Positions 1 through 21,265 of a stretch of DNA of 64,000 nt are shown here, piece by piece (the first letter of the stretch is position 1; every line of letters begins with the position of its first letter). A model generated the notes under the pieces. The model did not search any database, was not told the DNA's origin, and saw only the letters and a program-made list of their open reading frames with translations. The translations under genes were made by a program, and so were the position numbers. This DNA comes from Desulfosudis oleivorans (lineage in GTDB: Bacteria; Desulfobacterota; Desulfobacteria; Desulfobacterales; SURF-7): assembly GCA_020723305.1 (NCBI GenBank), contig DYJC01000001.1, positions 392,661 through 456,660 of the forward strand. The letters are read 5' to 3'.

Positions 1-1659
1 ATGAAAGAAGTGTTCGATTCGTATCTTTTCCTGCTTGCTGAAGTTGTTGTTCGCCCAAGCATTGAACAGTTCATAACCGATCATGATATGGGTGATACCT
101 CTTTTTTTCAGTTCAGATAAAATTTCTGCCTGGAGATTCGTTTCTTTTATGATCTTTGCAAATAAGGAAAAGTTGAAGATCATTTTCCGATCACTATAGT
201 AATACCGGTTGCCTGTAAAAACAGGCAAGATGACAGCATCTTCTGGAAGATGCTGATTCGCATACTTCATGACTGCATATTCCGGATGATATTTTTCAAT
301 ATATTGATCCCGATCAACCTGGCCTGTCAGATAGGTCATAGGTTCAACATGTTTGAACAGATCGACAACATAACCAGCGTTCATACAGAGCATCCATCCT
401 ATGATAGCTCCTAAAACAGTATATTGCAGTAATCTACCTAAAAAAGAACTACCCTGACGAGCCCTTTCCACCAGGTTGTGAAGTCCAAACATGGATAATA
501 CAACCAGAGGAGGGATAATAGGTGAAAGATATCGGATTCTGACATCATGAGTGAAAAAAACGAACAACAGAAACAAAACAGAAAAGAGAAACATAATTCT
601 CATTTCAAAAACAAAATGTAACCGGTTGTTCTTTTTTTTGTATCTGAAAAATGCAAAAAAGGGCAGTAAAAATAAAAAAGGATTCAGTTTGCCATCAAAA
701 TATTTGGGGTTGTTATCCTCGCCCTGAAAAAATATACGGATGGGAACCAATGCCGTTTGCCACCAGGTTTCCCTGTAAACATATTTTCGAAGGGCTATCG
801 GCCCAAATTGTTTCCCAGTGTAATGAGTTGAAATACTTTTTCCTGTTTCTTTTCCCCTTTCAACCGTCTGTTTGCTGAAAAATTGATGATAAAGCGGATA
901 TACAGGATTTTTTTTCCACACATAATTGCGAATCATCCAGGGTGAGAAGCAGAGAGCTGAAATAACCACGAAAAAAATGGCATGCCGTATCGCAGCAAAA
1001 GAACTCGCAGATTCAGCAGGTGCGGATCGTATATAAACAAAAGGCACAATAAGGGATGTCAGCACAAATAGAATCAAGGCATTGTATTTGATCCCCATTG
1101 CCACGCCACAACATAAGGCGGAAAAAAATAAAAATCTGACTGCATGTTTTTTTTCGCACCACTCCATTATAAACATCAGAGAAGCAAATGAGAAAAAAAT
1201 TAGCCCAAGGTCAACATATGCTGTAATGGATAGCTTGACAATCAACGGGATGGAAAGGAAAAACAGCACCCCCAGACTTCCATATAAACTGCCAATGCGT
1301 TTTTTCAGATAATAATAAATGAGAAACGCTGTGAACAACGCAAATGAAAAATGAATATATTTTGGAATGATATCATTTCCAAAATATAGCGGGATCAGAT
1401 ACAGAATATCCATGTTCATTGGATAATAACTGAATTTGATCGATGGGATCTCGTACACACCTCCATGTTCTATGTACAGCTTGGGTACAGCAAGATGGTG
1501 TGTCAATTCATCCCGGTTAACCGGCGGAACAGAGGATAAAACAAGAATTGAAATCGTCAGAATGGAAATAGAAATCAACAAAGCGGACTGGATGAGCCTC
1601 CGAATGCGGAATTCTGAAAAACAAGTTATATCTATATTCTTGTCCATTGGTTGAGTCAT
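1..1659 (-). CDS. GT-C fold membrane glycosyltransferase, ArnT/PMT_2-like (partial; C-terminus runs off the left window edge)
   Basis: The reverse frame is open from the ATG (complement of 1657-1659) to position 1 with no stop, so it is missing from the complete-ORF track. My translation begins MTQPMDKNIDITCFSEFRIRR. It has many hydrophobic segments and an early acidic loop motif (PPVNRDELTHHL), as in GT39/GT83-type lipid-linked-sugar transferases. It lies 39 bp downstream of the VKOR-DsbA gene on the same strand. Confidence 0.6.
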   Translation of the reverse strand, partial: MTQPMDKNIDITCFSEFRIRRLIQSALLISISILTISILVLSSVPPVNRDELTHHLAVPKLYIEHGGVYEIPSIKFSYYPMNMDILYLIPLYFGNDIIPKYIHFSFALFTAFLIYYYLKKRIGSLYGSLGVLFFLSIPLIVKLSITAYVDLGLIFFSFASLMFIMEWCEKKHAVRFLFFSALCCGVAMGIKYNALILFVLTSLIVPFVYIRSAPAESASSFAAIRHAIFFVVISALCFSPWMIRNYVWKKNPVYPLYHQFFSKQTVERGKETGKSISTHYTGKQFGPIALRKYVYRETWWQTALVPIRIFFQGEDNNPKYFDGKLNPFLFLLPFFAFFRYKKKNNRLHFVFEMRIMFLFSVLFLLFVFFTHDVRIRYLSPIIPPLVVLSMFGLHNLVERARQGSSFLGRLLQYTVLGAIIGWMLCMNAGYVVDLFKHVEPMTYLTGQVDRDQYIEKYHPEYAVMKYANQHLPEDAVILPVFTGNRYYYSDRKMIFNFSLFAKIIKETNLQAEILSELKKRGITHIMIGYELFNAWANNNFSKQEKIRIEHFFH

Positions 1660-1698
1660 TTTATCCGGTATAAAAAAATAATGGCCCAAGATTCATCT

Positions 1699-2883
1699 TC
1701 AATCGACTACCTTTGATAACACATCATCGGGCAGTTGCCCCAGGTAAACTTTGCCATTGATAACGTAAGCCGGAGTACCGCTGATCCCAAGTTTCAATCC
1801 AGACCGGATATCCGCGTCAAGATGGGTACGGGTATCCTTGTCAAAAAAAGCAGCCACCAGATCTTTGTCATCCAAACCGATTTTTACGGATAACTCTTTT
1901 ACGTTAATCTCACCTTTTTGAACTGCCGCATCAAACAAAAGGTCATTCAGTTCCCAGAATTTTCCTTTCTTCGCAGCATGAATGGCTAACAATGCCAGAC
2001 TTCCGGAACCGATATGGAAAGGCTCCCTGACAATCGGATTAAACCGATGATCCATAGGATAATGACGGTGAACCAGACGGATTTGATCCGGTTTTTCCCC
2101 TACAAGATTCCGGATAAAAAAATGCATTTTCTTGCATTGAAAACACTGATAATCTGTGAATTCAGTGATTTCCAGTACTGGATTTTTCGCACCGATCCAG
2201 GGGTGACCGTCTGCAGTTATGCCGGTAGGAAGTTCTCTTGATATTTCTTTTATAGAGAATGTCCAGTAATTAGGGAAAACAAAGAAAAGAGAAAAAAAAC
2301 AAATGGCGAATATCCCCATTATGGGGACACTTTTTTTCCTCATAACCCACAGAAAAGCCAGATCCCGATGACTGCTTTGAATAACGCCATGAATATGAAA
2401 CCGTTTCCGGATGATCCATGTTAAGTATAAAAGAAAAAAATTGACCCCAAAACTGAAGAGACACATGATGCAGTAACTGTGAATATATACGGTTGAGATG
2501 ATGGCAAGAATAATGCTGTAAACACTGAACGTCAGTGCAATCAGAAAAAGCAGTGACCAGAGCGGACGATCCTCTCCTTGCTGTTTCCAGGCAAAGGATA
2601 GCAAAAGTAAAAAAAAGGTATATCCAACAATTCCCCAGACCGGCACCGGAATATTCAGAAAGATGGAATAAGGGCTCTGAGAAACCGTATCACAGTTAAT
2701 GGATTTGGATAAGGCGCAGAAACTTTTATATCCGATATCTGTATAAACCCTGTAATGGGAAATCGACAAGTAAATGGAATCGGAAAGCCCCAGAATGGCA
2801 AGTAACAAAACAGTTAAAAAATATGCCTCATACGGAAGCGGTTTTATTTCTTTTTTTGTTTTCACCTTTTCTACAACCCTCAT
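1699..2883 (-). CDS. VKOR-DsbA fusion protein (DsbB-replacing disulfide bond formation enzyme)
   Basis: The N-terminal polytopic domain has the loop cysteine pair FCALSKSINC and the CIMC (CxxC) active site typical of bacterial VKOR. The C-terminal soluble domain has the thioredoxin/DsbA CxxC (YQCFQC). Confidence 0.8.
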   Translation of the reverse strand: MRVVEKVKTKKEIKPLPYEAYFLTVLLLAILGLSDSIYLSISHYRVYTDIGYKSFCALSKSINCDTVSQSPYSIFLNIPVPVWGIVGYTFFLLLLSFAWKQQGEDRPLWSLLFLIALTFSVYSIILAIISTVYIHSYCIMCLFSFGVNFFLLYLTWIIRKRFHIHGVIQSSHRDLAFLWVMRKKSVPIMGIFAICFFSLFFVFPNYWTFSIKEISRELPTGITADGHPWIGAKNPVLEITEFTDYQCFQCKKMHFFIRNLVGEKPDQIRLVHRHYPMDHRFNPIVREPFHIGSGSLALLAIHAAKKGKFWELNDLLFDAAVQKGEINVKELSVKIGLDDKDLVAAFFDKDTRTHLDADIRSGLKLGISGTPAYVINGKVYLGQLPDDVLSKVVD

Positions 2884-2888
2884 TATTA

Positions 2889-4682
2889 TTATAAAATCTT
2901 ATCGCTCAACATTTCCCTGGCTTTTTTCAAATTCTTTTCCACGCCCGGCATGTCCGGTTTGATGGTAATCGCTTTTTGAAAAAAAAAGACCGCTTTTCTG
3001 AAGTCCTTCTGATTCGCATAAAAAACGCCTATGTTATTATATATCCCTGCATCATCCGGATCAAGCGCTGCTGCTATAGTGAAATGGTCGATGGCCTTAT
3101 CAAACCGCTTTTGAAGACCATAAATCCTGCCAAGACGAATGTGTACATCTTTATCCTCCGGCCGAGTCACCAGTAGCCTTGAGAACTGATCTATCGCATC
3201 ATTGAACCGATTCCGAGCCACAAAAGCAAGCCCCAAATTATAACGTGCATCATCATATTCCGGGTTGATTCTCAATGCTTCCTGAAAATGCGGTATTGCT
3301 TGGTGTGCATGACCTTTTTGAGACAAAGCACATCCCAGATTGTTATTCGCAATCCAGTTTCCCGAAGTCACTTCAATAGCATGTCGAAATAACTGAATGC
3401 TGTTTTTCCAATATCGCGTTTGAACATGGGCAGATATTGTCATGCACAGGCCGAAAATCATTGCACACAAAGCCAATTTTTTTTTTCTATGAACCCAGCC
3501 GGTCGTCAAGTCCGCAGCACCCCATGAAATGATGATAAAAATACCAATCAGTGGGATATATGTATATCGATCGGCCATGGACTGAGATCCGATTTGAACC
3601 AGGCCGATAACAGGCACCAATGTTCCGATATACCATAACCATCCTACAATAATATATGGAAATCGTTTTACTACCATAAATCCGATTGTGGGGACGACAG
3701 CAAATACGACGCCGGCAAGAACGATCTCATCCATCAAAAAAGAGGATGGATAGGGATAAATGACTGCCAAATCAAAGGGCCAAATCATTTTTTCAATATA
3801 GGCAATATAGGTTATCAGGGCATTGGCAATCCTGTCCCAAAGCGGAAACATCGTTACAGCCCCGACCGCTCCTCCTTTTTGTTGAACCAGGAGTGTGATG
3901 AAACATGATCCCATTGCAATAATAACCAAAGGTAATTTTTCGATACTGAATCGCAGAACCAGCGATGTAAAACCATAGCTTCTTTGTTGGCTTTTTTCTT
4001 CGCAGGGAATATTCTGATCATAACGTCTTAAAGGCCAGTAGTCCATGAGAAGCAATATAAACGGAAGGGTCACCAGCATGGGTTTGGACATCAGACTCAG
4101 TGAATAAAAAATCAGGACCAAGCTATAGAGATATCTTCCTGGATTTTTTACATATCGAACATATCCCCACAGGGTTATTAGCCCAAAAAAAGTGCTCAAA
4201 ACATCCTTACGTTCTGCTACCCATGCTACAGATTCTACATGAAGCGGATGAATAGCGAAAAGAACCGCAAGAAAACAACTCTTCCAGAGATCATCGGTCA
4301 TTTTCCGAAATAGAAAAAAGATCAGGAATGAATTTGCGATATGAAAAAGCATATTGGTAAAATGATGAGCACCAGGATTCATTCCATAGATCTGTATATC
4401 CATCATATGGGAGATCCATGTTAATGGATGCCAGTTGCTTGCATATGATGTTGAAAATGCCCGGATCATGTTTTGAACATTCAAGCCCTGTGCGATATGG
4501 GGATTTGATGTAATATATGTTTCATCATCATAGTTGATAAAGTCATGGGTTCTTGTTTGAAAAAAAACGAAGAAAATCAAGACAAGCAGGAGGAGATAAA
4601 CCGGATAATCCGCAAGGGTTCGACGGAAGACTTTTTCTTCGCTTCTCGACATAAAAGTTCTCATATCTACCGCTCTCATCAA
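2889..4682 (-). CDS. TMTC-like GT-C membrane protein with C-terminal TPR repeats (putative protein O-glycosyltransferase)
   Basis: Polytopic N-terminal domain with first-loop FINYDDETY and an IHPLHVESVAWVAERKD motif. The C-terminal has several TPR units (NLGCALSQKGHAHQAIPHFQEALRINP and similar). It sits 5 bp upstream of the VKOR-DsbA gene. Confidence 0.7.
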   Translation of the reverse strand: MMRAVDMRTFMSRSEEKVFRRTLADYPVYLLLLVLIFFVFFQTRTHDFINYDDETYITSNPHIAQGLNVQNMIRAFSTSYASNWHPLTWISHMMDIQIYGMNPGAHHFTNMLFHIANSFLIFFLFRKMTDDLWKSCFLAVLFAIHPLHVESVAWVAERKDVLSTFFGLITLWGYVRYVKNPGRYLYSLVLIFYSLSLMSKPMLVTLPFILLLMDYWPLRRYDQNIPCEEKSQQRSYGFTSLVLRFSIEKLPLVIIAMGSCFITLLVQQKGGAVGAVTMFPLWDRIANALITYIAYIEKMIWPFDLAVIYPYPSSFLMDEIVLAGVVFAVVPTIGFMVVKRFPYIIVGWLWYIGTLVPVIGLVQIGSQSMADRYTYIPLIGIFIIISWGAADLTTGWVHRKKKLALCAMIFGLCMTISAHVQTRYWKNSIQLFRHAIEVTSGNWIANNNLGCALSQKGHAHQAIPHFQEALRINPEYDDARYNLGLAFVARNRFNDAIDQFSRLLVTRPEDKDVHIRLGRIYGLQKRFDKAIDHFTIAAALDPDDAGIYNNIGVFYANQKDFRKAVFFFQKAITIKPDMPGVEKNLKKAREMLSDKIL

Positions 4683-4695
4683 TCAACCGGATCCT

Positions 4696-6336
4696 TCATG
4701 GCTTTTGCTGCATCCCTTTTTCCGTTTTCTGATACTCAAACGCTTTTTCCAGATTTTTTTTTGCTTCCACATAGATTGGTAGAATTCGAATGGCCTCCTG
4801 GAAGTGACGTATTGCTTCTTCCAGTTTTCCATTCAAGGAGAGGGCAACGCCATAATTATTATGAGCAAACGCTGACTTTGGGTTCAACTGAATTGCTTTA
4901 GACAACACCACTAATGCTTCTTCATTTCTGCCTGCTCTAATCAAGGATGTTCCAAGGCAGGTATGAGGCCTTTCTTTATTCGGTGATTTCCGGGTACAAT
5001 CAGCAAAAAGCGAAACCTCATTCCTCCAAACAATGTTTCTCTGGTAGGTCCAGAATGACAAGATTGCGATCACAATGCACAGGATCACTTTTGATAGCCG
5101 ATCTGATCTGATATAGGAAAAAAACAAGCAGGCTGGTAAAATGAACGCAAGCATAGAAGGCAGATACAGACGATGCTCAAATATGATCTCAAGTCCGATT
5201 ACAGATGACTCCATGACAAGATTGCCCAGGAACCAGCATATGCAAAAAGAGAAAACTCTTTCGCTTCTGGCGATACGGATTGCAAGAATCATCATTCCGG
5301 CAATTATTCCCAAACTCAGAAGAGTCGTAACAGGGTTCAGTAGTGAAAGAGAAAGGGGAAAATCATAATCCAGGTTTAACCGGGAAGGATGTGGATAAGC
5401 CAAAAGGGTTATATAATGAACCACCACCCGGGGTTCGGTCAACAGTCGCTGAGCAAGGGTAAAATTTCGTGTTTTATACTGGGACAGTATTTTTTCAACA
5501 GGATTTCCTCCAATATAACTAATCGATAAAAAAAGAAAAAACAGAAAAATACCCAACAAACGGGGGACGTTCTTCTTCAGCCACTTTCGATCCAGGTTCT
5601 GGAAAAAAAACCACTCATACAGAAAAATAAAAAATGGCAGGGTTGCTGCATTTTCCTTGGAGCATAAAGCAAGCACTCCGGACAAAGATGAACCAAAAAA
5701 AAATAAATAAACGAATCCAGGATGCCTTTTCACCGTTTCTGTTTTATTTTGAACGCAAAGCATTCTGGCTTTTGCATATAAAAACAATGACAGAAGATAA
5801 AACAAGGCGGCCATACTGGTCATTCTCTGTATGATATAAGTGACTGCCTGGGTCTGGACAGGATGAACCAACCAGATCAATGCCGCCATAAAAGGAATGA
5901 GCCTGTTTTGACATCGGGAAGGGCAATGAATTCTGAAAGTGATTTTGATAAAAAAATAAAGCACCATGCCGGAAGCGATATGGACCATGATATTGAACAG
6001 ATGATAGCCCAGTACATTGTACTGACCGAAATAATAATTCAGGGAAAGACTGATATTGGATAACGGACGTTTGGATCGAAGGCTTTTCAATGCTGCATCG
6101 TATACAGTGTCCCACGTCAGTTCTGAAACACGAATATATTGATTATTCAGTATGTTTGCGGCATCATCCAAAACAAATGGAGAACCCAGTGTATGGGAGT
6201 ATAAGGTTATTGTGATTGCTGAAAACAGAACCATTGCCAGTAGATCCCGACTGATGAAACCTGATTGAGCCGGATATGGCTTGGGTGTGTATGTACCTGA
6301 CTTGAAATAACCTTTTTGAATATCCATCGATTGCAA
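4696..6336 (-). CDS. TMTC-like GT-C membrane protein with C-terminal TPR repeats (paralog 2)
   Basis: Motifs PFVLDDAANI, VHPVQTQAVTYIIQRM and SVIGLEIIFEHRLYLPSM (DUF1736-like segment), followed by C-terminal TPRs. It is a paralog of 6371..8365. Confidence 0.7.
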   Translation of the reverse strand: MQSMDIQKGYFKSGTYTPKPYPAQSGFISRDLLAMVLFSAITITLYSHTLGSPFVLDDAANILNNQYIRVSELTWDTVYDAALKSLRSKRPLSNISLSLNYYFGQYNVLGYHLFNIMVHIASGMVLYFFIKITFRIHCPSRCQNRLIPFMAALIWLVHPVQTQAVTYIIQRMTSMAALFYLLSLFLYAKARMLCVQNKTETVKRHPGFVYLFFFGSSLSGVLALCSKENAATLPFFIFLYEWFFFQNLDRKWLKKNVPRLLGIFLFFLFLSISYIGGNPVEKILSQYKTRNFTLAQRLLTEPRVVVHYITLLAYPHPSRLNLDYDFPLSLSLLNPVTTLLSLGIIAGMMILAIRIARSERVFSFCICWFLGNLVMESSVIGLEIIFEHRLYLPSMLAFILPACLFFSYIRSDRLSKVILCIVIAILSFWTYQRNIVWRNEVSLFADCTRKSPNKERPHTCLGTSLIRAGRNEEALVVLSKAIQLNPKSAFAHNNYGVALSLNGKLEEAIRHFQEAIRILPIYVEAKKNLEKAFEYQKTEKGMQQKP

Positions 6337-6370
6337 TTTACGTTACAGGCGCCTGCCTGTTCATATACAA

Positions 6371-8365
6371 TTATTCGATATTATTTAATGATTGCTTTAT
6401 AAAACCATGTTTCCGTTTCCGGATGACTCTTTCCAGATTTATTCTGGCTTCCTGATAATCAGGTTTGATTTCCAATGCGGTTTTCAGAACACGAATCGCC
6501 TGCAAGGTTCTTCCTGTCTGAATCAGCGCCACACCCAAATTATTGGCTGCCTCTGCATAGCGTTTATCAATTTGCAGAGCTTTGGAATAGGAAGCAATCG
6601 CTTCCGTCATGTTTACCTGAGAGTAATGAATATTTCCAATACAATTATATGCCTGAGCTGAATTGGGTTTTATCCGTATTGCTTCCCGGCAGTGCTTCAT
6701 GGCCTGGTCTGTTTTTCCATCAACAAGCAATGCAGTGCCGAGATTAATATGAGCATATACAAAATCAGGCTGCAATCGTAAGGCTTCTCGATAATGAGTG
6801 ATTGCCTGATCCTTTTTTCCTTGCATAAACAACTCCAACCCGAGATTGGTGTGAAGTGACGCCTTTTCAGGATCTATTCTGAGTGCTGTCTGATAATGTT
6901 TCACAGCCTCATGAGTCATACCCTTTTCAGCCAGGGCAATCCCAAGGTTATAATGAGGTCTGAACTTATTCGGGGATTTTAAAATGCAATCTTCAAGAAG
7001 AGTAATTTCATTATTCCATATTTTATTTCTGGTATAGGTCCATACAGAAAAAACCATAACCAGCAAGCAAAGGAAAATGGTTGTAAACCGGTTGACTCCG
7101 ATATACCGGTAACAAAATACTACCAGTAATAAACAAATCATCATGGAAGGCAGATACAGACGATGCTCAAATATGATCTCAAGTCCGATCACGGAAGACT
7201 CAATCACAAGGTTTCCGAAATACCAGAGAATGCAAAATGAGACCAGTCTTTGCTTTTTAGCCGTTACCAATGAAAAAACAATACAGAAAAAAATGATGCA
7301 CAGACAGATCAAGGTGGTAACCGGATCTGTAATAGATCTGGATAATGGGAAATCATGCTCCAGATTCAATTGCGAAGGATGAGGGAACAGCAGTAGACCC
7401 ATATAAAAAATCACTACACGGAACTCTGTAAACAGACGCTGAACCATGGTGAAATCTCGTTTGTCATACATGGTTCCTATTTTTGCTAAAGGATTTTCAC
7501 CCAGGTAAAGCAGCGCGAATATCAAAAATAATACCAGCACACCTGAAAACCGAAAAAAATTGTGTTTCAACCAGGAACCCCTCATGTCCTGGAAAAAGAA
7601 CCATTCATACAAAAACAGGAACAATGGCAAAGTGGCAGCGACCTCCTTGGCCCCTACAGCCATGATACCGGCAGTCAGGGAACCCAGAAAAAAGAGATAG
7701 ACAGATACAGGATATGGATTTGTTACGGATATAAGTTTACCATTTTTGAACTTCTGAACATCCTCCTGCCTTTCGAGCATCAGCAATCTGGCCTTTACAT
7801 ATAGAAACATTGCAATCATATAAAACATGGATGACATACTATTCATCCTTTGAACAATATAGGTTACCGACTGGGTCTGAATTGGATGAACCATCCAGAT
7901 TGCTGCCGCAAAAATAGGAATTGCCCGGTGAGCTAAAGCCGGACAGGGATAAACCCTTCTTGTAATCAGGATAAAATAGTATAAAAATATCCCGGAAATT
8001 ATATGTACCAGGATATTAAAAAGATGGTATCCAGAAACGTGATATCCATTCAGGTAGTAGTTCATAGCAAAACTTATATTTGCTACCGGCCTGTTTTTAA
8101 GATGGCCTTTCATAGCTGCTGCTGTCAGACTGTCCAGAGAAAGCTCCGTCATCCGGATATGAGGATTGGAAATAATATTATTGACATCATCAAACAAAAA
8201 AGGAACATGAAGGGTATTGGAATATATAAAAAATACAATCAAGATCAGGAGCATCAGGAGCCGGCTTTCATACTCCTTTGAAATTTTTAAAAGACCATTC
8301 CCCTCGCTGATGTTGTCGTATGTCTTCAAAACAGGATGCTGCCTTTGTGTCATACTTAGTTGCAT
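6371..8365 (-). CDS. TMTC-like GT-C membrane protein with long C-terminal TPR array (paralog 3)
   Basis: Motifs PFLFDDVNNI, VHPIQTQSVTYIVQRM and SVIGLEIIFEHRLYLPSM, followed by multiple TPR units up to the C-terminus. Confidence 0.7.
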   Translation of the reverse strand: MQLSMTQRQHPVLKTYDNISEGNGLLKISKEYESRLLMLLILIVFFIYSNTLHVPFLFDDVNNIISNPHIRMTELSLDSLTAAAMKGHLKNRPVANISFAMNYYLNGYHVSGYHLFNILVHIISGIFLYYFILITRRVYPCPALAHRAIPIFAAAIWMVHPIQTQSVTYIVQRMNSMSSMFYMIAMFLYVKARLLMLERQEDVQKFKNGKLISVTNPYPVSVYLFFLGSLTAGIMAVGAKEVAATLPLFLFLYEWFFFQDMRGSWLKHNFFRFSGVLVLFLIFALLYLGENPLAKIGTMYDKRDFTMVQRLFTEFRVVIFYMGLLLFPHPSQLNLEHDFPLSRSITDPVTTLICLCIIFFCIVFSLVTAKKQRLVSFCILWYFGNLVIESSVIGLEIIFEHRLYLPSMMICLLLVVFCYRYIGVNRFTTIFLCLLVMVFSVWTYTRNKIWNNEITLLEDCILKSPNKFRPHYNLGIALAEKGMTHEAVKHYQTALRIDPEKASLHTNLGLELFMQGKKDQAITHYREALRLQPDFVYAHINLGTALLVDGKTDQAMKHCREAIRIKPNSAQAYNCIGNIHYSQVNMTEAIASYSKALQIDKRYAEAANNLGVALIQTGRTLQAIRVLKTALEIKPDYQEARINLERVIRKRKHGFIKQSLNNIE

Positions 8366-8477
8366 CTTTCTTATTCCAGTTGATTTTTTCTAATTTTGTT
8401 AAATTTCTAACCGGAAACAATTGATAAAACAAGTCCTGTTTCGGTATTGTGTTGGAAAATATAGCTTGCCGCCAATG

Positions 8478-8515
8478 AAAAAACCAGGGGAGAGGACTTT
8501 CCCCCTCTTCCCTGG
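8478..8515 (-). terminator. Rho-independent terminator after the pilin gene
   Basis: On the minus strand, ccagggaagagg-gggaaagt-cctctcccctgg forms a 12-bp stem with one G-U pair. It is followed by a T6 run and lies about 40 nt after the pilin stop. Confidence 0.65.
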
Positions 8516-8554
8516 TTTTGATTCTGATTAAAACCAACAAATTGGAATGATAAA

Positions 8555-8926
8555 TTACAGTGTTTTTCCAGTCGTTGTAAATCGAGGACATCTGCCGGAT
8601 GTATCAGTTACTGTAACCCTGTATTGGTTTGAACCGAGGTCAGTGATGGTCCAATCATTATTGTTGGATACGGCGATTACAGGTCCGGAATCATCAGTTA
8701 ATCTTGCTACTGATATAGCCCGATTCGCCGGATCGGCAAAGTAATCCGCAATAGCGCCCATAATGGTCTGCACGTCTGTTTCAGCTCCGGAGCAGTATGC
8801 TTTATCCCGATAGGAGATAAAATTCGGAATTGCGATGGCTGCCAGGATGCCGATAATTGCGATAACGATCATGAGCTCGATCAGGGTAAAACCTTTTTCA
8901 GAATTGCCTCTCAATCTTTGTAGCAT
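8555..8926 (-). CDS. pilA: Type IV major pilin (type IVa, 12-aa leader)
   Basis: [12 protein letters not shown]|[24 protein letters not shown] is a class III signal peptide with conserved G-1/F+1/E+5. The protein has two Cys (AYCSG, GRCPR) and a Thr/Ser-rich C-terminus. A strong RBS (aaggagg) precedes the ATG. Confidence 0.88.
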
Positions 8927-9092
8927 GGTGTTCCTCCTTTTTGATTGTTGTTGTTGTTGCTCTTGTTGTTGTTCTTTTGTATGATTGTTGTAAAAAAAAC
9001 AAATTTATTTTATTTTTTCCCTTTCTAAACATCAAATCACATAAAAAATTCTATCGAAAAACTGAAAAAATCAAATATCAGCTTATGGTTTA

Positions 9093-9108
9093 AGCAAAAA
9101 AAATGCCA
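9093..9108 (-). promoter_or_regulatory. Sigma-54 (-24/-12) promoter of pilA
   Basis: The minus strand reads TGGCATTTTTTTTGCT, which is TGGCAT-N5-TTGCT. This matches TGGCAC-N5-TTGCW in sequence and spacing, about 170 nt upstream of the pilA ATG. Confidence 0.7.
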
Positions 9109-9229
9109 TCGCTTATCAATTAAAGTAATCATGCAACATACTGTTTATACATAATATATTTTATTTTCAAAATCTTTATGACTTGTTCAGATCCTTGAGT
9201 CACCAAAAAATGTCACAAATCCTGATTGA

Positions 9230-9246
9230 CTGACAAAAATTGTCAG
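9230..9246. promoter_or_regulatory. Perfect palindrome CTGACA-N5-TGTCAG, candidate enhancer (UAS) for the adjacent sigma-54 activator
   Basis: ctgacaaaaattgtcag lies about 125-140 bp upstream of the -24/-12 element in the pilA direction. Another TGTC occurs at 9211-9214. Confidence 0.4.
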
Positions 9247-9259
9247 CCTTCTCTCCTTT

Positions 9260-10678
9260 TTAAAACTCTCCTCCAAGCGGTTTCTCAATCCCTAGTTTCT
9301 CAAATCGATACCGCAGGGAACGAAAACTCATTCCCAGGAGCTCCGCTGCCCGGTTCTTGTTACCATTGGTATACTCAAGTGCTTTTTTGACATAGGCCGC
9401 TTCAATGGTCTCCATGATCTCATCCAGATTGACACCATGGGAAACATCATCCAGGTCAAACCGCCGTCCCTTTACGCCCTCAATCCATCTTCGTTTATGA
9501 ATGGAGATCGAAAGACTCTCCGGCAGAATGATATTGGTTGCAGACAGCGTAACACTGCGTTCAATCAGGTTTTCCAGTTCCCGTATATTTCCCGGAAAAT
9601 CATACTTGTTTAACAGATCAATGGCATAGGAAGAAATCTTGGTCATCTCCTTGCCGGTTTCCTTGGCGTATTTTTCTAAAAAATACTGGGCCAGCGCTTT
9701 TAAGTCTGATTTTCTCTCCCGGAGAGGAGGGACCTTTATCTGTATCACATTAAGCCGGTAAAACAGATCTTCCCTGAACTTGCCTGCAATCACTTCTTCT
9801 TCGAGATTTTTGTTGGTCGCGGATATAATCCGGATATCGACCGAAATATCATTGGTTCCGCCGACACACCGGAACACCCGCTCCTGTACTGCACGTAAAA
9901 TTTTTACCTGCAGGGGAAGAGTCAACTCTCCAATCTCATCCAGAAAGATGGTTCCATTGTGGGCAATCTCAAACAACCCCTTTTTATCCTGGGTCGCTCC
10001 GGTAAAAGCCCCTTTCTTATGACCGAACAGCTCGCTCTCCATCAACGATTCGGGTATGCCGCCACAATTCACGACCACAAAGGGATTGTTCCTCCGGTTG
10101 CTCTGCTCATGAATCGCTTTTGCGATAAATTCCTTACCGGTTCCGCTTTCTCCGGTGACTAGAATATTTGTCCGGGTCTTAGCCACTTGCCGAATCATTT
10201 CATAGATTCGAATCATCCCGGGACTGTTCCCGACAATTTTCCCAAAATGAAGATTTTTTTTCAGCTCATCATCCAGGATCTCTTTTTCATGTTCTATGGT
10301 TTTCAGATCCAGCGCGTTGGCGATCGTCCTTTTCAGCTCATCATTGTTAAAAGGTTTGGGGACGTAATCATAAGCGCCTTTATTCATGGCTTCAACCGCT
10401 GCCTCTGTGGTTGAATAGGCAGAGATCATGATCACAACTGTTGCGGGATCTTTCTGCTTTGCTTCCTGTAACACTTCTATTCCGCTGATGTCACCCAGCC
10501 GGATATCACAAAGCAACAGGTCAAAACGGGTTTCCTGTATCATGGATTTGGCTGTCTTACCGGTTCCGGCAATGGAAACCCGATAGCCGGCTCTGGTCAG
10601 CATAACCTCAAGAAATTCCTGCATGCTCAGTTCATCATCAACGACAAGGATGTGAGAACGTCCGTTAGAATCTGGCAT
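9260..10678 (-). CDS. Sigma-54-dependent response regulator (REC + AAA+ + Fis-type HTH; NtrC/PilR type)
   Basis: REC domain (ILVVDDE, CDIRLGD), Walker A GESGTGKE, the GAFTGA loop, and a C-terminal HTH (NKNRAAELLGMSFRSLRYR). The start was moved to the internal ATG (MPDSNGRSHILVVDD, complement of 10676-10678); the 35 codons further upstream in the track ORF look non-coding. Confidence 0.85.
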   Translation of the reverse strand: MPDSNGRSHILVVDDELSMQEFLEVMLTRAGYRVSIAGTGKTAKSMIQETRFDLLLCDIRLGDISGIEVLQEAKQKDPATVVIMISAYSTTEAAVEAMNKGAYDYVPKPFNNDELKRTIANALDLKTIEHEKEILDDELKKNLHFGKIVGNSPGMIRIYEMIRQVAKTRTNILVTGESGTGKEFIAKAIHEQSNRRNNPFVVVNCGGIPESLMESELFGHKKGAFTGATQDKKGLFEIAHNGTIFLDEIGELTLPLQVKILRAVQERVFRCVGGTNDISVDIRIISATNKNLEEEVIAGKFREDLFYRLNVIQIKVPPLRERKSDLKALAQYFLEKYAKETGKEMTKISSYAIDLLNKYDFPGNIRELENLIERSVTLSATNIILPESLSISIHKRRWIEGVKGRRFDLDDVSHGVNLDEIMETIEAAYVKKALEYTNGNKNRAAELLGMSFRSLRYRFEKLGIEKPLGGEF

Positions 10679-10816
10679 ATTTGTGAAAAATGTTCCGGTA
10701 TCGGTTATCCGTAATACATAAGGACGAGTAAATTTCCGACCAAGTCCAACCAACCTGGTCGGTTGGCACGCTACTAAGTACAACCATGCTTGTCAATAGG
10801 ATTTTTCTACTCTTTC

Positions 10817-12115
10817 TCATGCATTGGCGTAATCTGAGCTTTCAGTAAAGACGATGTTTCCTCCAACGATGGTAACCACGGCTTTCCCCGTCATCTGCCG
10901 TCCCTGAAACGGAGTGTTACGGCTTTTGGAATAAAATCTTTCAATATCAATCGTGTATGAAAACTCAGGATCAATAACGGTGATATCTGCAGGAAGCCCC
11001 TCTCTGATTCCTGTCTCAAGCCCCAGAATTTTTGCAGGATTTTCGGTCATTTTCTGGATTAGGGTTTCCATCGTAATCACTTTATCTTTCACAAGTCTCA
11101 ATGAGAGCGGAAGTGACGTTTCAAGACCAATGATGCCATTGGCTGCCAAGCTGAATTCAATATCTTTTTCAAGGGAAGAATGTGGCGCGTGATCTGTGGC
11201 AATCACGTCGATTGTTCCATCAGCCAGACCTTGCCGGACAGCCTCTTTATCCTTGAGAGATCGTAAAGGAGGATTCATCTTGAAGTTTGTATTATACTCA
11301 ATAATATCCTCATCTGTCAAAGAAAAATAATGGGGAGCGGTTTCAGCCGTGACAGGAAGTCCTCTTTTTTTAGCGTCCCGGATGGCCTCAACCGACTCTT
11401 TTGTACTGACATGGGCGATATGAAGTCTGGCGCCGGTCAGCTCACATAAAGCAATATCCCGCATTACCATGACTGCTTCCGATGCATTTGGTATACCAGA
11501 GAGTCCCATCCGGGTGGCTGTCGGGCCCTCATTCATAACGCCATTTCCGGAAAGCTGAAGATCCTCTGCATGAGAAATTACAAGCAAATCAAAACCCATG
11601 GCATACTCCATGGCTCTTCGCATAAGTTGAGAATCGGATACCGGAAGCCCGTCATCGGTAACAGCAACTGCACCGGAAAGCTTGAGCTCTCCAAATGCGG
11701 ATAGTGCTTTTCCCTTAAGCCCCATACTGATGGATGCAACCGGATATACGCGGGCCTTTCCAGCCTGTCTGGCCTTTCTTATGATATACTCTGTAATTTC
11801 AGCACAATCATTTACAGGATTTGTATTGGGCATCGAACAAACGGCTGTAAATCCTCCGCTAGCTGCCGCCATGCAACCGGAGGCGATGGTTTCTTTATAC
11901 TCATGACCCGGTTCTCTCAGGTGAACATGCATATCAATCAGACCAGGAGCAACAATTTTACCATTTGCATCGATCACCACGTCTTCTTGTTTTATGGACT
12001 CTTTATATGTCCCGGGTTTCTGGATTTCAGCAATCTTCCCATTCTGAACAATAATATCATAACAACCTGTAATGTTGCCGGGATCAATCAGAGTCCCTCC
12101 TTTAATCATCAGCAT
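10817..12115 (-). CDS. pyrC: Dihydroorotase
   Basis: [10 protein letters not shown] metal-binding motif, length 432 aa, overlapping the end of pyrB. Confidence 0.9.
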
Positions 12116-13037
12116 TTCTGATCCCTCCAGCCAGTAGATAAAAAAGTGCCATTCTTAAGGCTACCCCATTGGTTACCTGGTCCAGTATAATGGAATGTTT
12201 CCCGTCAGCAATGGCCGGTGAAATTTCTACACCCCGGTTTATGGGGCCGGGATGCATGATCAGAACATCCGGCTTCATTATCTTCATTCTCTTTTCCGAG
12301 AGCCCGTATTCTCTGGCATATTCTCTTTCCGTTGAAAATAAAAAAGAAGATTGTCTCTCCTTTTGAATTCGAAGCATCATTACCACATCTGCATTCTGAA
12401 CCGCCAGATCCACTGAATGGGAAACCGATGCCCCCAAATGTTCAATACCCTTTGGAATCATGGTCCGTGGTCCGGAAACAACTACGTCTGCGCCCATTTT
12501 CGTAAACCCGATAATGTTTGAACGGGCAACCCTGCTATGAGAAATATCCCCGATAATCGCAATCCGAAGACCGAGAAGATCCCCTTTCCTCTCCCTGACC
12601 GTCATCATATCCAGAAGTGCCTGGGAAGGATGTGCATGTGTCCCATCACCGGCATTGATAATCGATGTGTTTAAATATCGACTCAACATGTGAGGCGCTC
12701 CTGAAGCAGAATGCCGGATGACAATCACATCCGGCCTCATCGCCTCAAGATTTCTTGCCGTGTCAATCAAGGTTTCTCCCTTAACCATGCTGCTGGAACC
12801 AGCAGAAAGGGAAACACAATCCGCACTTAATCTCTTTGCAGCAATATCAAAAGAAAGTTTTGTCCTTGTGCTGGGTTCATAAAAAAACAGAACAACGGTT
12901 TTCCCCCGAAGGGTTGGAACCTTTTTAATGGGCCGTTCTGAGATCTCCTTCATCTTATCCGCTGTATCCAGAATAAAAGAGATCTCCTCTTTAGATAAGG
13001 AAGCAATATCAAGAATATCTTTTCTATTAAATTCCAT
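12102..13037 (-). CDS. pyrB: Aspartate carbamoyltransferase catalytic subunit
   Basis: STRTKLSFD carbamoyl-phosphate motif and [12 protein letters not shown] motifs. Confidence 0.9.
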
Positions 13038-13049
13038 TTTGTTCCTGTT

Positions 13050-13697
13050 CTATTTCAGCAATTGACCCATTCGACCCCAACGGACATAATCAAGAATTGA
13101 ATTCTGGTTCTCCCCATCCCAGGACCAATAAATAATAAAGGCTTTTCCTTTGATGGCTTTCAGTTTGACAAATCCCCAGAAACGGCTGTCATGGCTGTTG
13201 TCCCGGTTGTCACCCATCACAAAAAGAGAATCTTCCGGCACGGTTACCGGCCCGAAATTATCACGGCCCGGGAGACTTCGGTTATCCGTGAAAATGGCAA
13301 AATCCTGATCTAACATGCTATTGTTCACATACACCTTTTTATCCCGAATCTCTACGCGATCCCCGGCAACACCAATGACCCTTTTGATAAAATCCTTTGA
13401 TGGATCATCCGGATATTCAAAAACCACAATATCCTCCCGTTGAGGATCTTTAATCGGAATCAGCGTGGCCCCGATAAAAGGCAATTTGATACCGTATATG
13501 AACTTGTTGACCAGAATATGATCTCCGATGAGAAGGGTGTTTTTCATTGAACCGGATGGTATTTTAAAGGCCTGTACAACAAACGTTCTGATAAATAAGG
13601 CCAAAACAACAGCCACCAGGATCGCTTCAATGTTTTCCCTGAGACTGCTCTTCTTTTTTTTAATGTTTTTCTTTTCTGTCTCTTTATTCTGTTTCAA
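13050..13697 (-). CDS. lepB: Signal peptidase I
   Basis: N-terminal TM segment, catalytic SGSM motif and GDNRDNSHDSRFWG box. Confidence 0.87.
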   Translation of the reverse strand: MKQNKETEKKNIKKKKSSLRENIEAILVAVVLALFIRTFVVQAFKIPSGSMKNTLLIGDHILVNKFIYGIKLPFIGATLIPIKDPQREDIVVFEYPDDPSKDFIKRVIGVAGDRVEIRDKKVYVNNSMLDQDFAIFTDNRSLPGRDNFGPVTVPEDSLFVMGDNRDNSHDSRFWGFVKLKAIKGKAFIIYWSWDGENQNSILDYVRWGRMGQLLK

Positions 13698-13806
13698 TTC
13701 GGCCTATACCTTATTAAAAAATTTTAATGAAAACTCATATCCGATGCATATAAAACCATTTCAGATTGTATGCTGTCAGACTCCCGAAAAAAAAATCGAT
13801 ATTCAA

Positions 13807-14973
13807 CTAAACAGGCAAGGTGAATTGGGGCTCTCCGAGAAAAAACTCACCCTTCCGTATCCAATCTTTAAGAATTTCTGCAATCTCACGGGCTTTTACC
13901 ATGCTCGATAAGGGTACGGTAAGAACCTTTTTACCATCAAGTTCTATTGATCCGCTTTTCAATTCCGCATAGCTTACGGTTCCCAGACTATTGGAAATTC
14001 CATTCGGGTAGTCATTCCCGTAATCCACAATCTGAGTAAAAATTTCTTCATCGGAAATTGCCGTATATGAAGCCATTTCTTCATTCAATATCGGGATCGG
14101 TACGCCAAGACCGACTGCAAGAGAAATCCCGTACCCCTGTATACTCATCCCGACCAGCCACTTATGACTCATTTTCTTTAAATCCCCCATCACCCAGAGT
14201 GTACCGGCGGGTTTCATCGGAATCCCTTTCTCCGTACGCGGAACCGATGGATTATGCTGTGTTCCCTGCCAGGTAACATATCCTTCTGCACCTCCTAAAA
14301 ATATCCGGGTGCCCAGGCCAATGGTTTTGTAATACGGGTCATTAAAGAGTGGGCTTAACTCACCGGAAGAACAGTAGTTTGCATTTCCTGCCTTTGGTTT
14401 CAAAGCCCCCATATACGTATAAATTGTCTTTCGGGTAAGATTTACAGCGCAATTATAATTCTGATATCCATTGCGCGGATTGCATAAAGTGGCAGAGGGC
14501 AGTTCTTTTAAGGTAATTTGCTTTTCAATGATTCGGTTGGGATAACATGAAGTTCCATAAGCCGTTGCTTTTAAGTGCACCTTTTTGCCGGCAACAAGAT
14601 CCTGAATCACATGTCCTCCGCCATAATTAAATTCGCCGGGCCAGACCTTATTCAGCGGGTCATCCTCACAGGTTTCGGTAGCGCCGATATAACAGTCAAC
14701 CGCAGCAAGTCCTCCATATGCAGGGACATTGTTCAACCAGACTTTGGCGGCTTTTATCGTTGGTGAGGAATGGCCAAAATTAATGAATGCGCCGGATGAA
14801 CACATTGGAGCAAAGGTTCCGGTGGTAACAACATCCACCTTTCTGGCTGCCTCAACCGGGCCTTCTTTTTTCACAATTCCGATTATTTCTTCGGCTGTTA
14901 CAACAACAACTTTTCCTGAACGAATTTTAGCATTTATTTCCTGGTAGGTCTTGTTGACTTTATATGCGGACAT
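13807..14973 (-). CDS. COG1900/DUF39 homocysteine biosynthesis (sulfur incorporation) protein
   Basis: 388 aa. The N-terminal region (KVVVVTAEE...VDVVTTGTFAPMCSSGAFINFGH) is as I recall for the MJ0100-type family. No NIL-ferredoxin partner is adjacent. Confidence 0.6.
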   Translation of the reverse strand: MSAYKVNKTYQEINAKIRSGKVVVVTAEEIIGIVKKEGPVEAARKVDVVTTGTFAPMCSSGAFINFGHSSPTIKAAKVWLNNVPAYGGLAAVDCYIGATETCEDDPLNKVWPGEFNYGGGHVIQDLVAGKKVHLKATAYGTSCYPNRIIEKQITLKELPSATLCNPRNGYQNYNCAVNLTRKTIYTYMGALKPKAGNANYCSSGELSPLFNDPYYKTIGLGTRIFLGGAEGYVTWQGTQHNPSVPRTEKGIPMKPAGTLWVMGDLKKMSHKWLVGMSIQGYGISLAVGLGVPIPILNEEMASYTAISDEEIFTQIVDYGNDYPNGISNSLGTVSYAELKSGSIELDGKKVLTVPLSSMVKAREIAEILKDWIRKGEFFLGEPQFTLPV

Positions 14974-15210: not shown

Positions 15211-16044
15211 ATGAAAGCTATGGTGCAAATCGGAAATATCAAGGTCGGAGGAGCCAATCCTCTATTGTTAATTGCTGGTCCCTGTGTGATCGAAAATTAT
15301 GACAAAACATTTGAAATTGCTTCTTATCTGAAAAAACTGACCGAAAAACTTGAGATCCCCTTTGTATTCAAAGCATCGTATGACAAGGCCAACAGGACTT
15401 CAATCAATTCTTTTCGCGGCCCTGGGCTGAAAGATGGACTGGCAATTCTTCGCCAAATCAGAGCGAGCCTGGATATCCCGGTTTTGTCAGATGTTCATGC
15501 TATAAATGAAGTGGAACCTGCAGCCGAGGTTCTGGATATCATACAGATCCCTGCTTTTTTATGCCGTCAGACCGACTTGATTCTTGCCGTATCCCGGACC
15601 CAAAAACCAATCAATATTAAAAAAGGACAATTTCTGGCGCCTGGTGACATTCAAAATATTACAGAAAAAGCGACCTCAACCGGAAATCGAAAAATTACAA
15701 TTACAGAACGGGGTAGCATGTTTGGGTACAACAATCTGGTTGTTGACTTTCGAAGCATCAAAATTATACAGGAGTCAACCGGATTTCCTGTAATATTCGA
15801 CGCCACCCACAGTGTCCAGCTTCCGGGGGGAAGCGGGATAGTTTCCGGCGGTCAACGCGAGTTTGCTCCAATACTTGCCAAAGCGGCTGTAGCAGCAGGC
15901 GCGGACGGAGTATTTATCGAGGTGTATCCTGATCCGGATACAGCACGTTGCGACGGGCCCAATTCCCTGAGAATGGATCAACTTGAACCGTTTCTTTCTA
16001 CCCTCAAGACGATTCGGGGCATCATCCAGAAAGAATACATATAA
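15211..16044 (+). CDS. kdsA: 3-deoxy-8-phosphooctulonate (KDO-8-P) synthase
   Basis: LIAGPCVIE, FKASYDKANRTS and FDATHSVQLPGG motifs. Confidence 0.92.
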   Translation: MKAMVQIGNIKVGGANPLLLIAGPCVIENYDKTFEIASYLKKLTEKLEIPFVFKASYDKANRTSINSFRGPGLKDGLAILRQIRASLDIPVLSDVHAINEVEPAAEVLDIIQIPAFLCRQTDLILAVSRTQKPINIKKGQFLAPGDIQNITEKATSTGNRKITITERGSMFGYNNLVVDFRSIKIIQESTGFPVIFDATHSVQLPGGSGIVSGGQREFAPILAKAAVAAGADGVFIEVYPDPDTARCDGPNSLRMDQLEPFLSTLKTIRGIIQKEYI

Positions 16045-16568
16045 TGAACCAGCACCTTGCAAGCAGGCTGAAACAGATCCAACTGTTACTTCTTGATGTG
16101 GATGGTGTGCTCACGGATGGGATGATTATATATAATGATTCCAATGTTGAAACAAAAATGTTCCATGTGAAAGACGGGTTTGGTATCCGCCTGCTGATGG
16201 ACTTCGGAATCCAGGTTGGCATTGTCACAGGAAGATCCTCTTCTGTAGTCAACCATCGATGTAAAAATCTCGGGATTACAATGATTTTTGATGGTGTCCG
16301 AAACAAAGCCCAGGCTCTTGAAAACATTCTGCAGCAAACAGGAAAGACCTCTCAGGAAATCGCTTTTATCGGAGATGATTTTCCGGATCTTCCGATTATG
16401 AACCGTGTCGGACTCCCCATTGCTGTTGCAGATGCGCATGAACATGTTCGTAAGCAGGCTGCGTTTGTGACATCTTCAAATGGGGGCAAGGGAGCAGTCC
16501 GGGAAGTCAGCGAAGCCATCTTAAAGGCCAAAGGTCTATGGAACAACATTCTGGATATATATAAATAG
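16044..16568 (+). CDS. kdsC: KDO-8-phosphate phosphatase (HAD family)
   Basis: LLDVDGVLTDG HAD motif I and GDDFPDLP motif. The start overlaps the kdsA stop. Confidence 0.85.
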   Translation: MNQHLASRLKQIQLLLLDVDGVLTDGMIIYNDSNVETKMFHVKDGFGIRLLMDFGIQVGIVTGRSSSVVNHRCKNLGITMIFDGVRNKAQALENILQQTGKTSQEIAFIGDDFPDLPIMNRVGLPIAVADAHEHVRKQAAFVTSSNGGKGAVREVSEAILKAKGLWNNILDIYK

Positions 16569-16571
16569 TCA

Positions 16572-17697: not shown

Positions 17698-17932
17698 GAG
17701 CCTGATATTTTAACCACCTATGAAGCAGCACATTTATCTTTGAAATCCCCCCGTTCCCTCTTTCAAGAAGTTGTCATTCCGGAAAAGTGCTGCTCAGAAT
17801 AATACTGTTATGATAAATCCATTGATTCTGCTTTCAATCTGGATTATAACCAATACAAGATACTGAGATGGATCAACTGGATTTTTTAAATTCAATAGTT
17901 ACTTATAGAAAAATATCAAAAAACGCATCTGA

Positions 17933-18658: not shown

Positions 18659-18661
18659 AGC

Positions 18662-20101: not shown

Positions 20102-20110
20102 GGAGGTACT

Positions 20111-20650: not shown

Positions 20651-20679
20651 ATTCCGGATATGGGTGTTGGTGATCATAT

Positions 20680-21138: not shown

Positions 21139-21195
21139 CAGGCACTGAAACAGCCCCTGTTTTTTCATTCAAAGGCATCCTTTCATTCGAACAAA

Positions 21196-21221: not shown

Positions 21222-21265
21222 TTCCCCCAAACAAAACAGGGGGAAATCTCCTTGGTCTTTTCAAC

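Follow-up and report, generated by a model that had tools for sequence, protein, structure and literature searches.

TfpW of Pseudomonas aeruginosa strains belonging to group IV (Pa5196/PA7) is a pilin D-arabinofuranosyltransferase of the GT-C class. The protein has 646 aa, with a cytoplasmic N-terminus, 11 transmembrane helices, a periplasmic DDX motif in loop 1 and a periplasmic C-terminal domain of tetratricopeptide repeats (TPRs), and ArnT is its best structural template (10.1101/2020.04.19.049825). Its gene lies immediately downstream of pilA and is essential for the O-linked D-arabinofuranose (D-Araf) on several Ser and Thr residues of the pilin (10.1101/2020.04.19.049825). In pilin-accessory cassettes, a Rho-independent terminator that follows the pilin gene and lowers expression of the accessory genes by attenuation has been described as a hallmark (PMC11841053). 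Here we analyse a 64,000-nt stretch of DNA from Desulfosudis oleivorans (assembly GCA_020723305.1, contig DYJC01000001.1, positions 392,661–456,660 of the forward strand), further called the window, in which the type IVa pilin gene pilA is followed by genes for three predicted GT-C/TPR proteins (A, B and C), a VKOR-DsbA fusion (D) and a further, TPR-less GT-C protein (E). As judged from these genes and their relatives, we propose with moderate confidence that they form an enlarged pilin O-glycosylation cassette of the TfpW type, coupled to a disulfide module.

Periplasmic glycosylation of pilins is also the task of TfpO/PilO and PglL, and tfpO likewise lies directly downstream of pilA. These are unrelated enzymes of the Wzy_C/O-antigen-ligase type, which lack TPRs and transfer preassembled glycans linked to undecaprenyl diphosphate. 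GT-C enzymes of the PMT (GT39), ArnT (GT83) and PMT_2 types use a polyprenyl-phosphate-sugar donor. The protein E and the C-type membrane domains resemble the latter enzymes in an acidic first-loop motif (RDE in E) and in reaching PMT_2, E just at the cutoff and the C type in some relatives of C, whereas E differs from PMT by a distinct C-terminal soluble domain and the lack of a MIR domain, and the A-type proteins fall short of PMT_2. In three-component extracytoplasmic glycosylation, a polyprenyl-phosphate-sugar synthase of glycosyltransferase family 2 (GT2) is combined with a flippase and a GT-C enzyme (PMC11127046); a GT2 of this synthase type (~290 aa) adjoins the GT-C gene in pilin cassettes related to the one described here, although the acceptor would in this case be a protein and not a polysaccharide. 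The cyanobacterial pilin-linked Ogt (PMC9306852) was considered as a relative and ruled out, being a cytoplasmic GT41 enzyme with N-terminal TPRs.

Pilin-adjacent GT-C/TPR glycosyltransferases are already known, and homologues beside pilA have been noted in other species. An earlier sequence-only reading of the window had described bacterial proteins of this build as essentially uncharacterised, listing TfpW only as a GT-C enzyme; this statement has to be withdrawn, as TfpW has both the architecture and the gene position in question (10.1101/2020.04.19.049825). What is new as compared to the TfpW locus is the tandem triplication, the extra TPR-less GT-C protein of PMT_2 type, the embedded VKOR-DsbA gene, the absence of D-Araf genes, and the host, a Desulfobacterales bacterium with a short, Geobacter-like pilin. 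The sigma-54/PilR setting of pilA is a further difference from the TfpW host.

Fold and conserved residues of A, B and C

Predicted fold and conserved residues mark A, B and C as polytopic glycosyltransferases of the GT-C class. Since A and B share 47% identity from end to end, and since hhalign aligns the profiles of the A and C families (membrane domain only) with a probability of 99.2% (E=8e-20, 392 columns), the likeness of the three proteins is beyond chance, and by their sequences they are paralogues; the pairwise identity of A and C is about 24%, and the two are colinear. An AlphaFold2 (AF2) model of residues 1–465 of A had a predicted local distance difference test score (pLDDT) of 87 and a predicted template modelling score (pTM) of 0.89. 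When the membrane-domain model was compared with the PDB by Foldseek, the top eight matches (6ftg, 5gmy, 6gxc, 6w98, 3waj, 5f15, 5ezm and 7bvc; the enzymes STT3, AglB, PglB, AftD, ArnT and EmbB) were all GT-C, which agrees with the class assignment of the sequence-only reading. The match probabilities were 0.33–1.0 (at least 0.9 for the top seven), with weak E-values (5e-3 to 0.3) and TM-scores of 0.3–0.45; the membrane domain of A is thus modelled as a GT-C fold, similar at the level of the fold only, and none of the solved structures is a close relative. Searched against the PDB, the sequence profiles of the A type and of E gave no match. For C, Foldseek with the full-length AF2 model (pLDDT 88) retrieved TPR proteins only, which was uninformative; the search described above used the membrane domain of A alone. 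PMT_2 matches 3 of the 5 relatives of C that were tested, two of them above the cutoff, and none of five A-type relatives. We class A, B and C together as GT-C because the model of A matches GT-C structures, the A and C families align, and relatives of C reach PMT_2. The order of helices in the AF2 models is compatible with 11 transmembrane helices, an N-terminus inside and TPRs outside; a hydropathy count gave no clean number, and this topology is deduced instead from the helices of the models and from the GT-C fold.

The landmarks of A lie in a membrane domain of residues 1 to ~450 and include the DD pair at 59–60, KEVAAT at 240, Y321-x6-P328 and EHRLY at 400; the TPRs in the C-terminal parts of A, B and C were found by Pfam. 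The first-loop DD motifs (FLFDD in A, position 56; FVLDD in B, position 54; NYDD in C), the HP motifs (HPIQTQSV in A, position 160; HPVQTQAV in B; HPLHVESV in C) and the string SSVIGLEIIFEHRLYLPSM common to A and B had all been pointed out before from the sequence, and are confirmed. Among 75 sequences of the A, B and C types, D59 occurs without exception and D60 is at least 90% conserved (they are D52/D53 in another alignment). The invariant or nearly invariant positions of both subfamilies are D59/D60, H121, H160-P161, R173, K240, R310, Y321, P328, Y404 and P406.

These residues bear on the possibility that A, B and C lack catalytic activity and act as TPR scaffolds in the assembly of a pilus or secretin, in the manner of PilF, PilW or Tgl. 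Such a role is suggested by annotations of the Joint Genome Institute (JGI; 'Tfp pilus assembly protein PilF', 'Flp pilus assembly protein TadD') and by partial NCBIfam matches to PilW and Tgl, which cover only the TPRs and lie far below the cutoffs. It is extremely improbable, since conservation is highest in the 450-aa membrane domain, where the catalytic DD of GT-C enzymes and their K, R and Y residues for phosphate binding are invariant. The identity of A, B and C with PilF, TadD or PilW was rejected, as these names go back to similarity of the TPR part alone.

Linkage with pilin genes

A scan with one genome per species gave 80 loci from many phyla (individual loci are numbered with an L below). 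In 5 of the 80, the GT-C/TPR gene or array had a type IVa pilin gene on the same strand within 1.2 kb upstream, as compared to 0.47 expected from the density of pilin-like open reading frames (ORFs) in the outer flanks; this is a ~10-fold enrichment (Poisson P ~1e-4). Same-strand pilin genes just before the GT-C/TPR gene occur in L001, L006, L019, L020, L021, L023, L044, L087 and L089, and in L088 the distance to the upstream pilin gene is 2.4 kb, with small ORFs in the intervening DNA. The order pilR-pilA-A-B-C-VKOR/DsbA-E is found identically in L001 and L006, whose A orthologues are 60% and 69% identical to A, while L021, from a more distant Desulfobacterales genome (44% identity), has pilR, pilA, one GT-C/TPR gene, VKOR/DsbA and E, followed by a GT2 gene. 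In three of the five loci, L020, L023 and L044, the order is pilS-pilR-pilA(x1–2)-GT-C/TPR(x1–2)-GT2, with sugar-nucleotide, methyltransferase, GT4 or ABC-transporter genes beyond the GT2. In L019, where the contig begins at the pilin gene, pilA is followed by three GT-C/TPR genes and a GT2. Three more members of this gammaproteobacterial clade were picked by sequence alone, and all three (3/3) have a PF00114 pilin gene on one side and a ~290-aa GT2 on the other, one of them adjoining pilBCD. Most of the checks suggested in the sequence-only reading turned out positive, among them the recurrence of the gene order in relatives, and, as gene order in these genomes indicates, the linkage with pilin genes also recurs independently outside this lineage, in Gammaproteobacteria.

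A rough neighbor-joining tree was built from 121 membrane domains. Its 21 pilin-linked genes are all confined to the gammaproteobacterial clade (12/13), to its sister clade of Desulfobacterota, which holds A and B, and to the C-type clade; there are none in the clades of Verrucomicrobia, Planctomycetes, Acidobacteria and Nitrospinae. The GT2 proteins that adjoin the pilin cassettes are closest to the polyprenyl- or dolichyl-phosphate monosaccharide synthases AglJ, PpgS, Dol-P-hexose transferase and ArnC, with scores below the equivalog cutoffs. Enzymes of this type make the donors for GT-C transferases.

Some further arrangements were noted during this comparison. In L044, from an uncultured gammaproteobacterium, two tandem type IVa pilin genes are followed by an A-like and a C-like GT-C/TPR gene, a GT2 and a Wzm/Wzt ABC transporter (8855–13673), so that the pairing of an A-type with a C-type protein is found in another class. 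L002 (Desulfuromonadales) has, at 3133–13848, a GT2, a methyltransferase, a UDP-GlcNAc-2-epimerase-like gene, LPG_synthase_TM and three tandem GT-C/TPR genes; this array converges on a cluster resembling those for type II secretion systems (T2SS) and type IV pili (15705–21776), with a T2SSG pseudopilin, a 601-aa N_methyl protein, T2SSF and T2SSE. The Magnetomoraceae loci L003 and L004 resemble L002. Just past E, GT-C/TPR paralogues are present in L001 (18400–20718, minus strand) and L006 (18727–20619, plus strand, and 20650–21863, minus strand), and one of these extra paralogues has a clear PMT_2 match; because L001 and L006 carry more paralogues beyond E, the cluster may extend to the left of the window start.

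Possible roles: pilin-specific or general glycosylation

Several observations weigh against a function of the cassette in pilin glycosylation. The full five-gene order was only seen alongside the shared housekeeping flanks lepB, pyrB and pyrC, so that the order in L001 and L006 by itself shows only inherited synteny. Most superfamily members, among them many Desulfobacterota paralogues (L005, L010, L011), have no adjoining pilin gene, which means that the family as a whole is not pilin-specific. The proteins D and E accompany the cassette in this Desulfobacterales lineage only, and for this reason our interpretation is weakest where it dedicates them to the pilin. The window contains no GT2 donor synthase and no sugar-biosynthesis gene. 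In the membrane domains of A, B and C (~450 aa) Pfam gave no match even at E<=10; what counts here is the lack of a match for the A type. Finally, homology of A to TfpW is putative, its likeness in architecture, size class (~650 aa) and gene position having been judged against the published description of TfpW.

In part these observations would suit a different explanation, in which A, B, C and E constitute a general system for periplasmic protein O-glycosylation or for an envelope glycan, their place after pilA is inherited synteny, and D is a housekeeping replacement of DsbB/DsbA. The very large size of the superfamily (more than 8000 word-sharing candidates, all significant, from many phyla), the absence of a pilin neighbour for ~100 of the 121 genes examined, the additional GT-C/TPR paralogues that relatives have past E on the other strand, the co-conservation of the lepB, pyrB and pyrC flanks with the cluster, and the established genome-wide replacement of DsbB by VKOR homologues in many bacteria all fit such a system. 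We regard it as a serious but somewhat unlikely alternative, as it does not account for the enrichment of pilin adjacency, which arose in at least two classes, for the membership of A and B in the clade where this adjacency concentrates, or for a layout of promoter and terminator that fits pilin-accessory cassettes. Thus, pilin glycosylation by an enlarged TfpW-type cassette is the reading that we prefer. For the sequence-only reading, which had described the cluster as a dedicated maturation module, this implies that glycosylation of the pilin is supported as a probable function, whereas the dedication of D and E, linked in this lineage only, is its weakest element.

Gene organisation, regulation and the pilin

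The sequence-only reading had listed six minus-strand ORFs, of which the five behind pilA are separated by 5–39 bp; coordinates, order and gaps were all confirmed (Table 1). The genes follow each other as pilA, A, B, C, D and E, with intergenic gaps of 189 nt (pilA-A), 34 nt (A-B), 13 nt (B-C), 5 nt (C-D) and 39 nt (D-E). The likely true start of B is an ATG at 6327, 3 codons downstream of the TTG, and the database version from the same contig (P0040) has 543 aa. For E, 553 codons are visible; orthologues have 559–587 aa, so that ~17–20 residues would lie beyond the window edge according to an alignment of four orthologues.

Table 1 Features of the pilin cassette (positions in the window)
Feature	Position	Strand	Remarks
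PilR-like sigma-54-dependent response regulator	9260..10783	-	ORF; directly upstream of pilA
Sigma-54 (-24/-12) promoter consensus	9093..9108	-	TGGCAT-N5-TTGCT
pilA, type IVa prepilin, 123 aa	8555..8926	-	N_methyl E=2.5e-10
Intrinsic terminator between pilA and A	8473..8519	-	16-bp G+C-rich stem (8480–8519) and T-run on the minus strand; strong
A, predicted GT-C membrane domain and ~6 C-terminal TPRs, 664 aa	6371..8365	-	TPR_1 E=6e-41
B, paralogue of A, predicted GT-C domain and 2 TPRs, 546 aa from TTG	4696..6336	-	47% identity to A
C, predicted GT-C domain of PMT_2-like subtype and 4–5 TPRs, 597 aa, TTG start	2889..4682	-	Distant paralogue of A
D, VKOR-DsbA fusion, 394 aa	1699..2883	-	VKOR, DSBA and Thioredoxin_4 matches
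E, PMT_2/PMT-type GT-C without TPR	1..1659	-	Cut by window start

The gene pilR also precedes pilA in L006, L020, L021, L044 and L087, whereas L023 has a shorter ORF for a sigma-54 activator at this place; the pilR orthologue of L001 has the domains Response_reg, Sigma54_activat and HTH_8. The sigma-54 consensus between pilR and pilA lies 167 nt upstream of the pilA ATG and is the single match of TGGCAYN5TTGCW in the window, with 0.21 expected. Control of pilA by PilR and sigma-54 is likely, because both pilR and a sigma-54 promoter consensus precede the gene. The window also holds rpoN (18662–20101), which sits in its usual lptB-rpoN-...-rapZ neighbourhood (17933–22129), and two sigma-54 activators besides pilR, at 56669–57706 (plus strand) and, as a GAF-domain protein, at 57757–59247 (minus strand).

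Within the 189-nt spacer between pilA and A, the minus strand gave no sigma-70-like site. As in TfpW-type loci (PMC11841053), a terminator separates the pilin gene from the accessory genes, and hairpins with other stem sequences are present at the same position after pilA in L001 (13 bp and T7) and L021 (15 bp and T6). The sequence-only reading had treated the terminator as a caveat. As it is a known feature of pilin-accessory cassettes (PMC11841053), it now counts as supporting evidence instead.

In PilA, a leader is followed by a mature part of 111 aa that opens with FTLIE. Its N-terminal 66 aa match Geobacter PilA-N (7tgg) with E=7e-17. The two Cys residues and the C-terminus rich in Ser and Thr that had been reported before are indeed present: there are exactly two Cys, C45 and C113, and 13 of the 20 Ser/Thr of the mature part lie within the last 45 residues. 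Both Cys residues and the motif ...RCPRF... are kept in the pilins of L001, L006 and L021.

The VKOR-DsbA fusion and the PMT_2-type protein

Protein D matches VKOR with 94 bits (cutoff 27.5), DSBA with 41 bits (cutoff 25.6) and Thioredoxin_4 with 44 bits. It has five hydrophobic segments, of which the fifth, as a transmembrane helix, would place the fused DsbA-like domain in the periplasm, and its Cys residues are a pair in the VKOR loop (C56/C64), an active-site pair (C138-IM-C141) and a pair in the DsbA-like domain (C247-FQ-C250). Matches in the PDB were the VKOR-Trx structures 4nv6 and 3kp9 and DsbA-like proteins. D resembles the VKOR proteins of Synechococcus (3kp9/4nv2) and Mycobacterium, which take the place of DsbB, in its five-helix VKOR domain with loop Cys pair and CXXC and in a periplasmic thioredoxin-fold CXXC. 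It differs from the Synechococcus VKOR-Trx protein in that the fused domain is DsbA-like (DSBA/Thioredoxin_4) instead of a plain Trx and in that the gene lies amid the glycosyltransferases of a pilin cassette. D may well be the general disulfide oxidase of the cell.

The score of E against PMT_2 (26.1 bits) is exactly at the cutoff, and its L021 orthologue exceeds the cutoffs of both PMT_2 (36.2 bits) and PMT (33.3 bits). The first-loop RDE motif is followed by a C-terminal soluble domain later in the protein; in four orthologues R49-D50 is invariant, the next residue being E in the protein of the window and A in the others. Because hhalign found no relation between the A-type profile and the E family, E is handled as a separate GT-C lineage.

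The similarity of E to PMT_2/ArnT-type enzymes without TPRs, together with the presence of ArnT (5f15/5ezm) among the structural matches of A, could mean that the GT-C enzymes modify lipid A, lipopolysaccharide (LPS) or another lipid or glycan in the way ArnT does, and that the TPRs serve only in the assembly of an envelope complex. This is very unlikely. In OGT, TMTC and TfpW, the fusion of a TPR array to a glycosyltransferase goes together with a protein acceptor, genes for LPS or lipid A are absent from the immediate neighbourhood of the cluster, and the linkage with pilin genes would be left without explanation.

Comparison with TfpW and TMTC enzymes

The TfpW motif YX6PFX7P of periplasmic loop 4 has no exact match here. 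A and B have an invariant Y-X6-P, and the Y-X6-PF-X6-P of C falls short of the TfpW motif by one residue; throughout the family, Y-X6-P does not vary (Y321/P328 in A, Y295/P302 in C). The pilin-linked proteins of the gammaproteobacterial clade likewise have 627–691 aa, with weak TPR signals. No protein named TfpW (AAM52060.1) was among the named matches of the profile search with this pilin-linked clade, and a plasmid tblastn gave no match. Unlike in the case of TfpW, genes for a D-Araf pathway (DprE1, DprE2, DPPR synthase) are absent from the window and from the related cassettes. The latter carry, in place of D-Araf genes, a GT2 and rhamnose-type, methyltransferase, GT4 or ABC-transporter genes. 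Since D-Araf genes are missing in both, the sugar probably differs from D-Araf. A TfpX-like gene was not seen here, nor was a GtrA-like flippase in the window.

The eukaryotic protein O-mannosyltransferases TMTC1-4 share with A, B and C the predicted arrangement of 11 transmembrane helices followed by TPRs. The motif strings of human TMTC1-4 include DD, a SHKSYRPLCVLTSFRLN stretch, '...LLFAVHPIHT', KE(T/Q)xxT and ERxxY (PMC7801869). The motifs M1-M7 (DD, SHKSYRP, RxD, KE(T/Q)xxT, DW, PxxP and ERxxY) were compared by eye with these published strings (PMC7801869). A and B have DD (M1), K-x-RP...SF.LN (a partial M2), HP(I/V)QTQ, KEVAAT/KENAAT (M4) and EHRLY (M7); C has DD (M1), HPLHVE, RKD (M3, in C only), KPMLVT (M4) and DRYTY (M7); and the TMTC boundary motif 'FA(V/I)HP(I/L)H' recurs here. 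For M5 and M6, no clear counterpart was made out. Some JGI annotations name homologues 'protein O-mannosyl-transferase'. The domain DUF1736 (PF08409), which is the TMTC signature in the loop between transmembrane helices 7 and 8, was absent from A, B and C at E<=10, from 10 relatives at E<=1, and from the precomputed Pfam lists of 360 homologues. The label 'TMTC-like' of the sequence-only reading therefore fits the architecture and several motifs, and does not stand as membership of the family, DUF1736 being unmatched; among the hidden Markov models relevant to that reading, those for TPR, VKOR, DSBA and PMT_2 did match. The substrates of TMTC enzymes are cadherin EC domains, as compared to a pilin as the proposed substrate here.

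Proposed mechanism and implications

In a mechanism consistent with these data, the terminator would let only a fraction of the transcripts read on into the five accessory genes. A GT2 encoded outside the window (the gene lies beside the cassette in relatives) may charge undecaprenyl phosphate with a sugar, which would then be flipped in its lipid-linked form to the periplasmic side of the membrane. In A, B and C, the DD loop and the TPR array should, by analogy with the GT-C fold, face the periplasm. The three enzymes could take the sugar from a polyprenyl-phosphate-monosaccharide donor and transfer it to Ser/Thr of membrane-anchored PilA before pilus assembly, the TPRs presumably holding the protein substrate. 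The existence of three paralogues may reflect different sugars or linkages added in sequence, or different sites, and E might add a further sugar or serve another acceptor. D would oxidise periplasmic cysteines and probably form the C45-C113 disulfide of PilA.

If this is correct, TfpW-type glycosylation reaches beyond a few Gamma- and Betaproteobacteria to relatives of sulfate reducers with Geobacter-like pilins, and the system can be multiplied, with as many as three or four enzymes of the GT-C class, and combined with a disulfide oxidase. The pilin-linked enzymes are part of a very large multi-phylum family that is annotated only as TPR proteins. The pilin would provide a testable substrate for these bacterial GT-C/TPR proteins, which are named just 'tetratricopeptide repeat protein', and the system could serve as a model, in bacteria, for the TMTC enzymes of eukaryotes, which are poorly understood. 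Glycosylation of pilins affects phage resistance and the surface properties of pili, and such effects could also bear on Geobacter-type pili.

A more elaborate scheme can be envisaged, in which A, B, C and E act as an assembly line that builds a multi-sugar O-glycan directly on a short pilin of the Geobacter type from polyprenyl-phosphate monosaccharides, with the C45-C113 disulfide made by D creating a folded epitope recognised by the TPRs. In this full form the scheme is speculative and quite unlikely. It would imply that TfpW and the enzymes A, B and C represent a bacterial branch of the TMTC lineage, and that pilins are the first substrate class to be defined for a family whose bacterial members, thousands in number, are uncharacterised.

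Other genes in the window

A T2SS-like cluster at 40853–54007 is separate from pilA. It comprises GspF (40853–42082, plus strand), a TPR protein (42091–43056), GspE (43461–45176), the secretin GspD (45246–47312), a PDZ-bearing GspC (47329–48183), a PilM_2/GspL-like gene (49708–51168), GspK (51319–52395), GspJ (52395–53159) and two further pseudopilin ORFs that end near 53583 and 54007. Six ORFs of 249–430 aa (27447–28520, 28674–29423, 32878–33846, 34318–35610, 35907–36749 and 48251–49111) had no Pfam match at E<=1e-5. The GC skew of the window is strongly negative from 46 kb on. An ORF at 61822–62943 (minus strand) combines SprT-like, DUF2786 and DUF7168 domains, which might indicate integrated mobile DNA.

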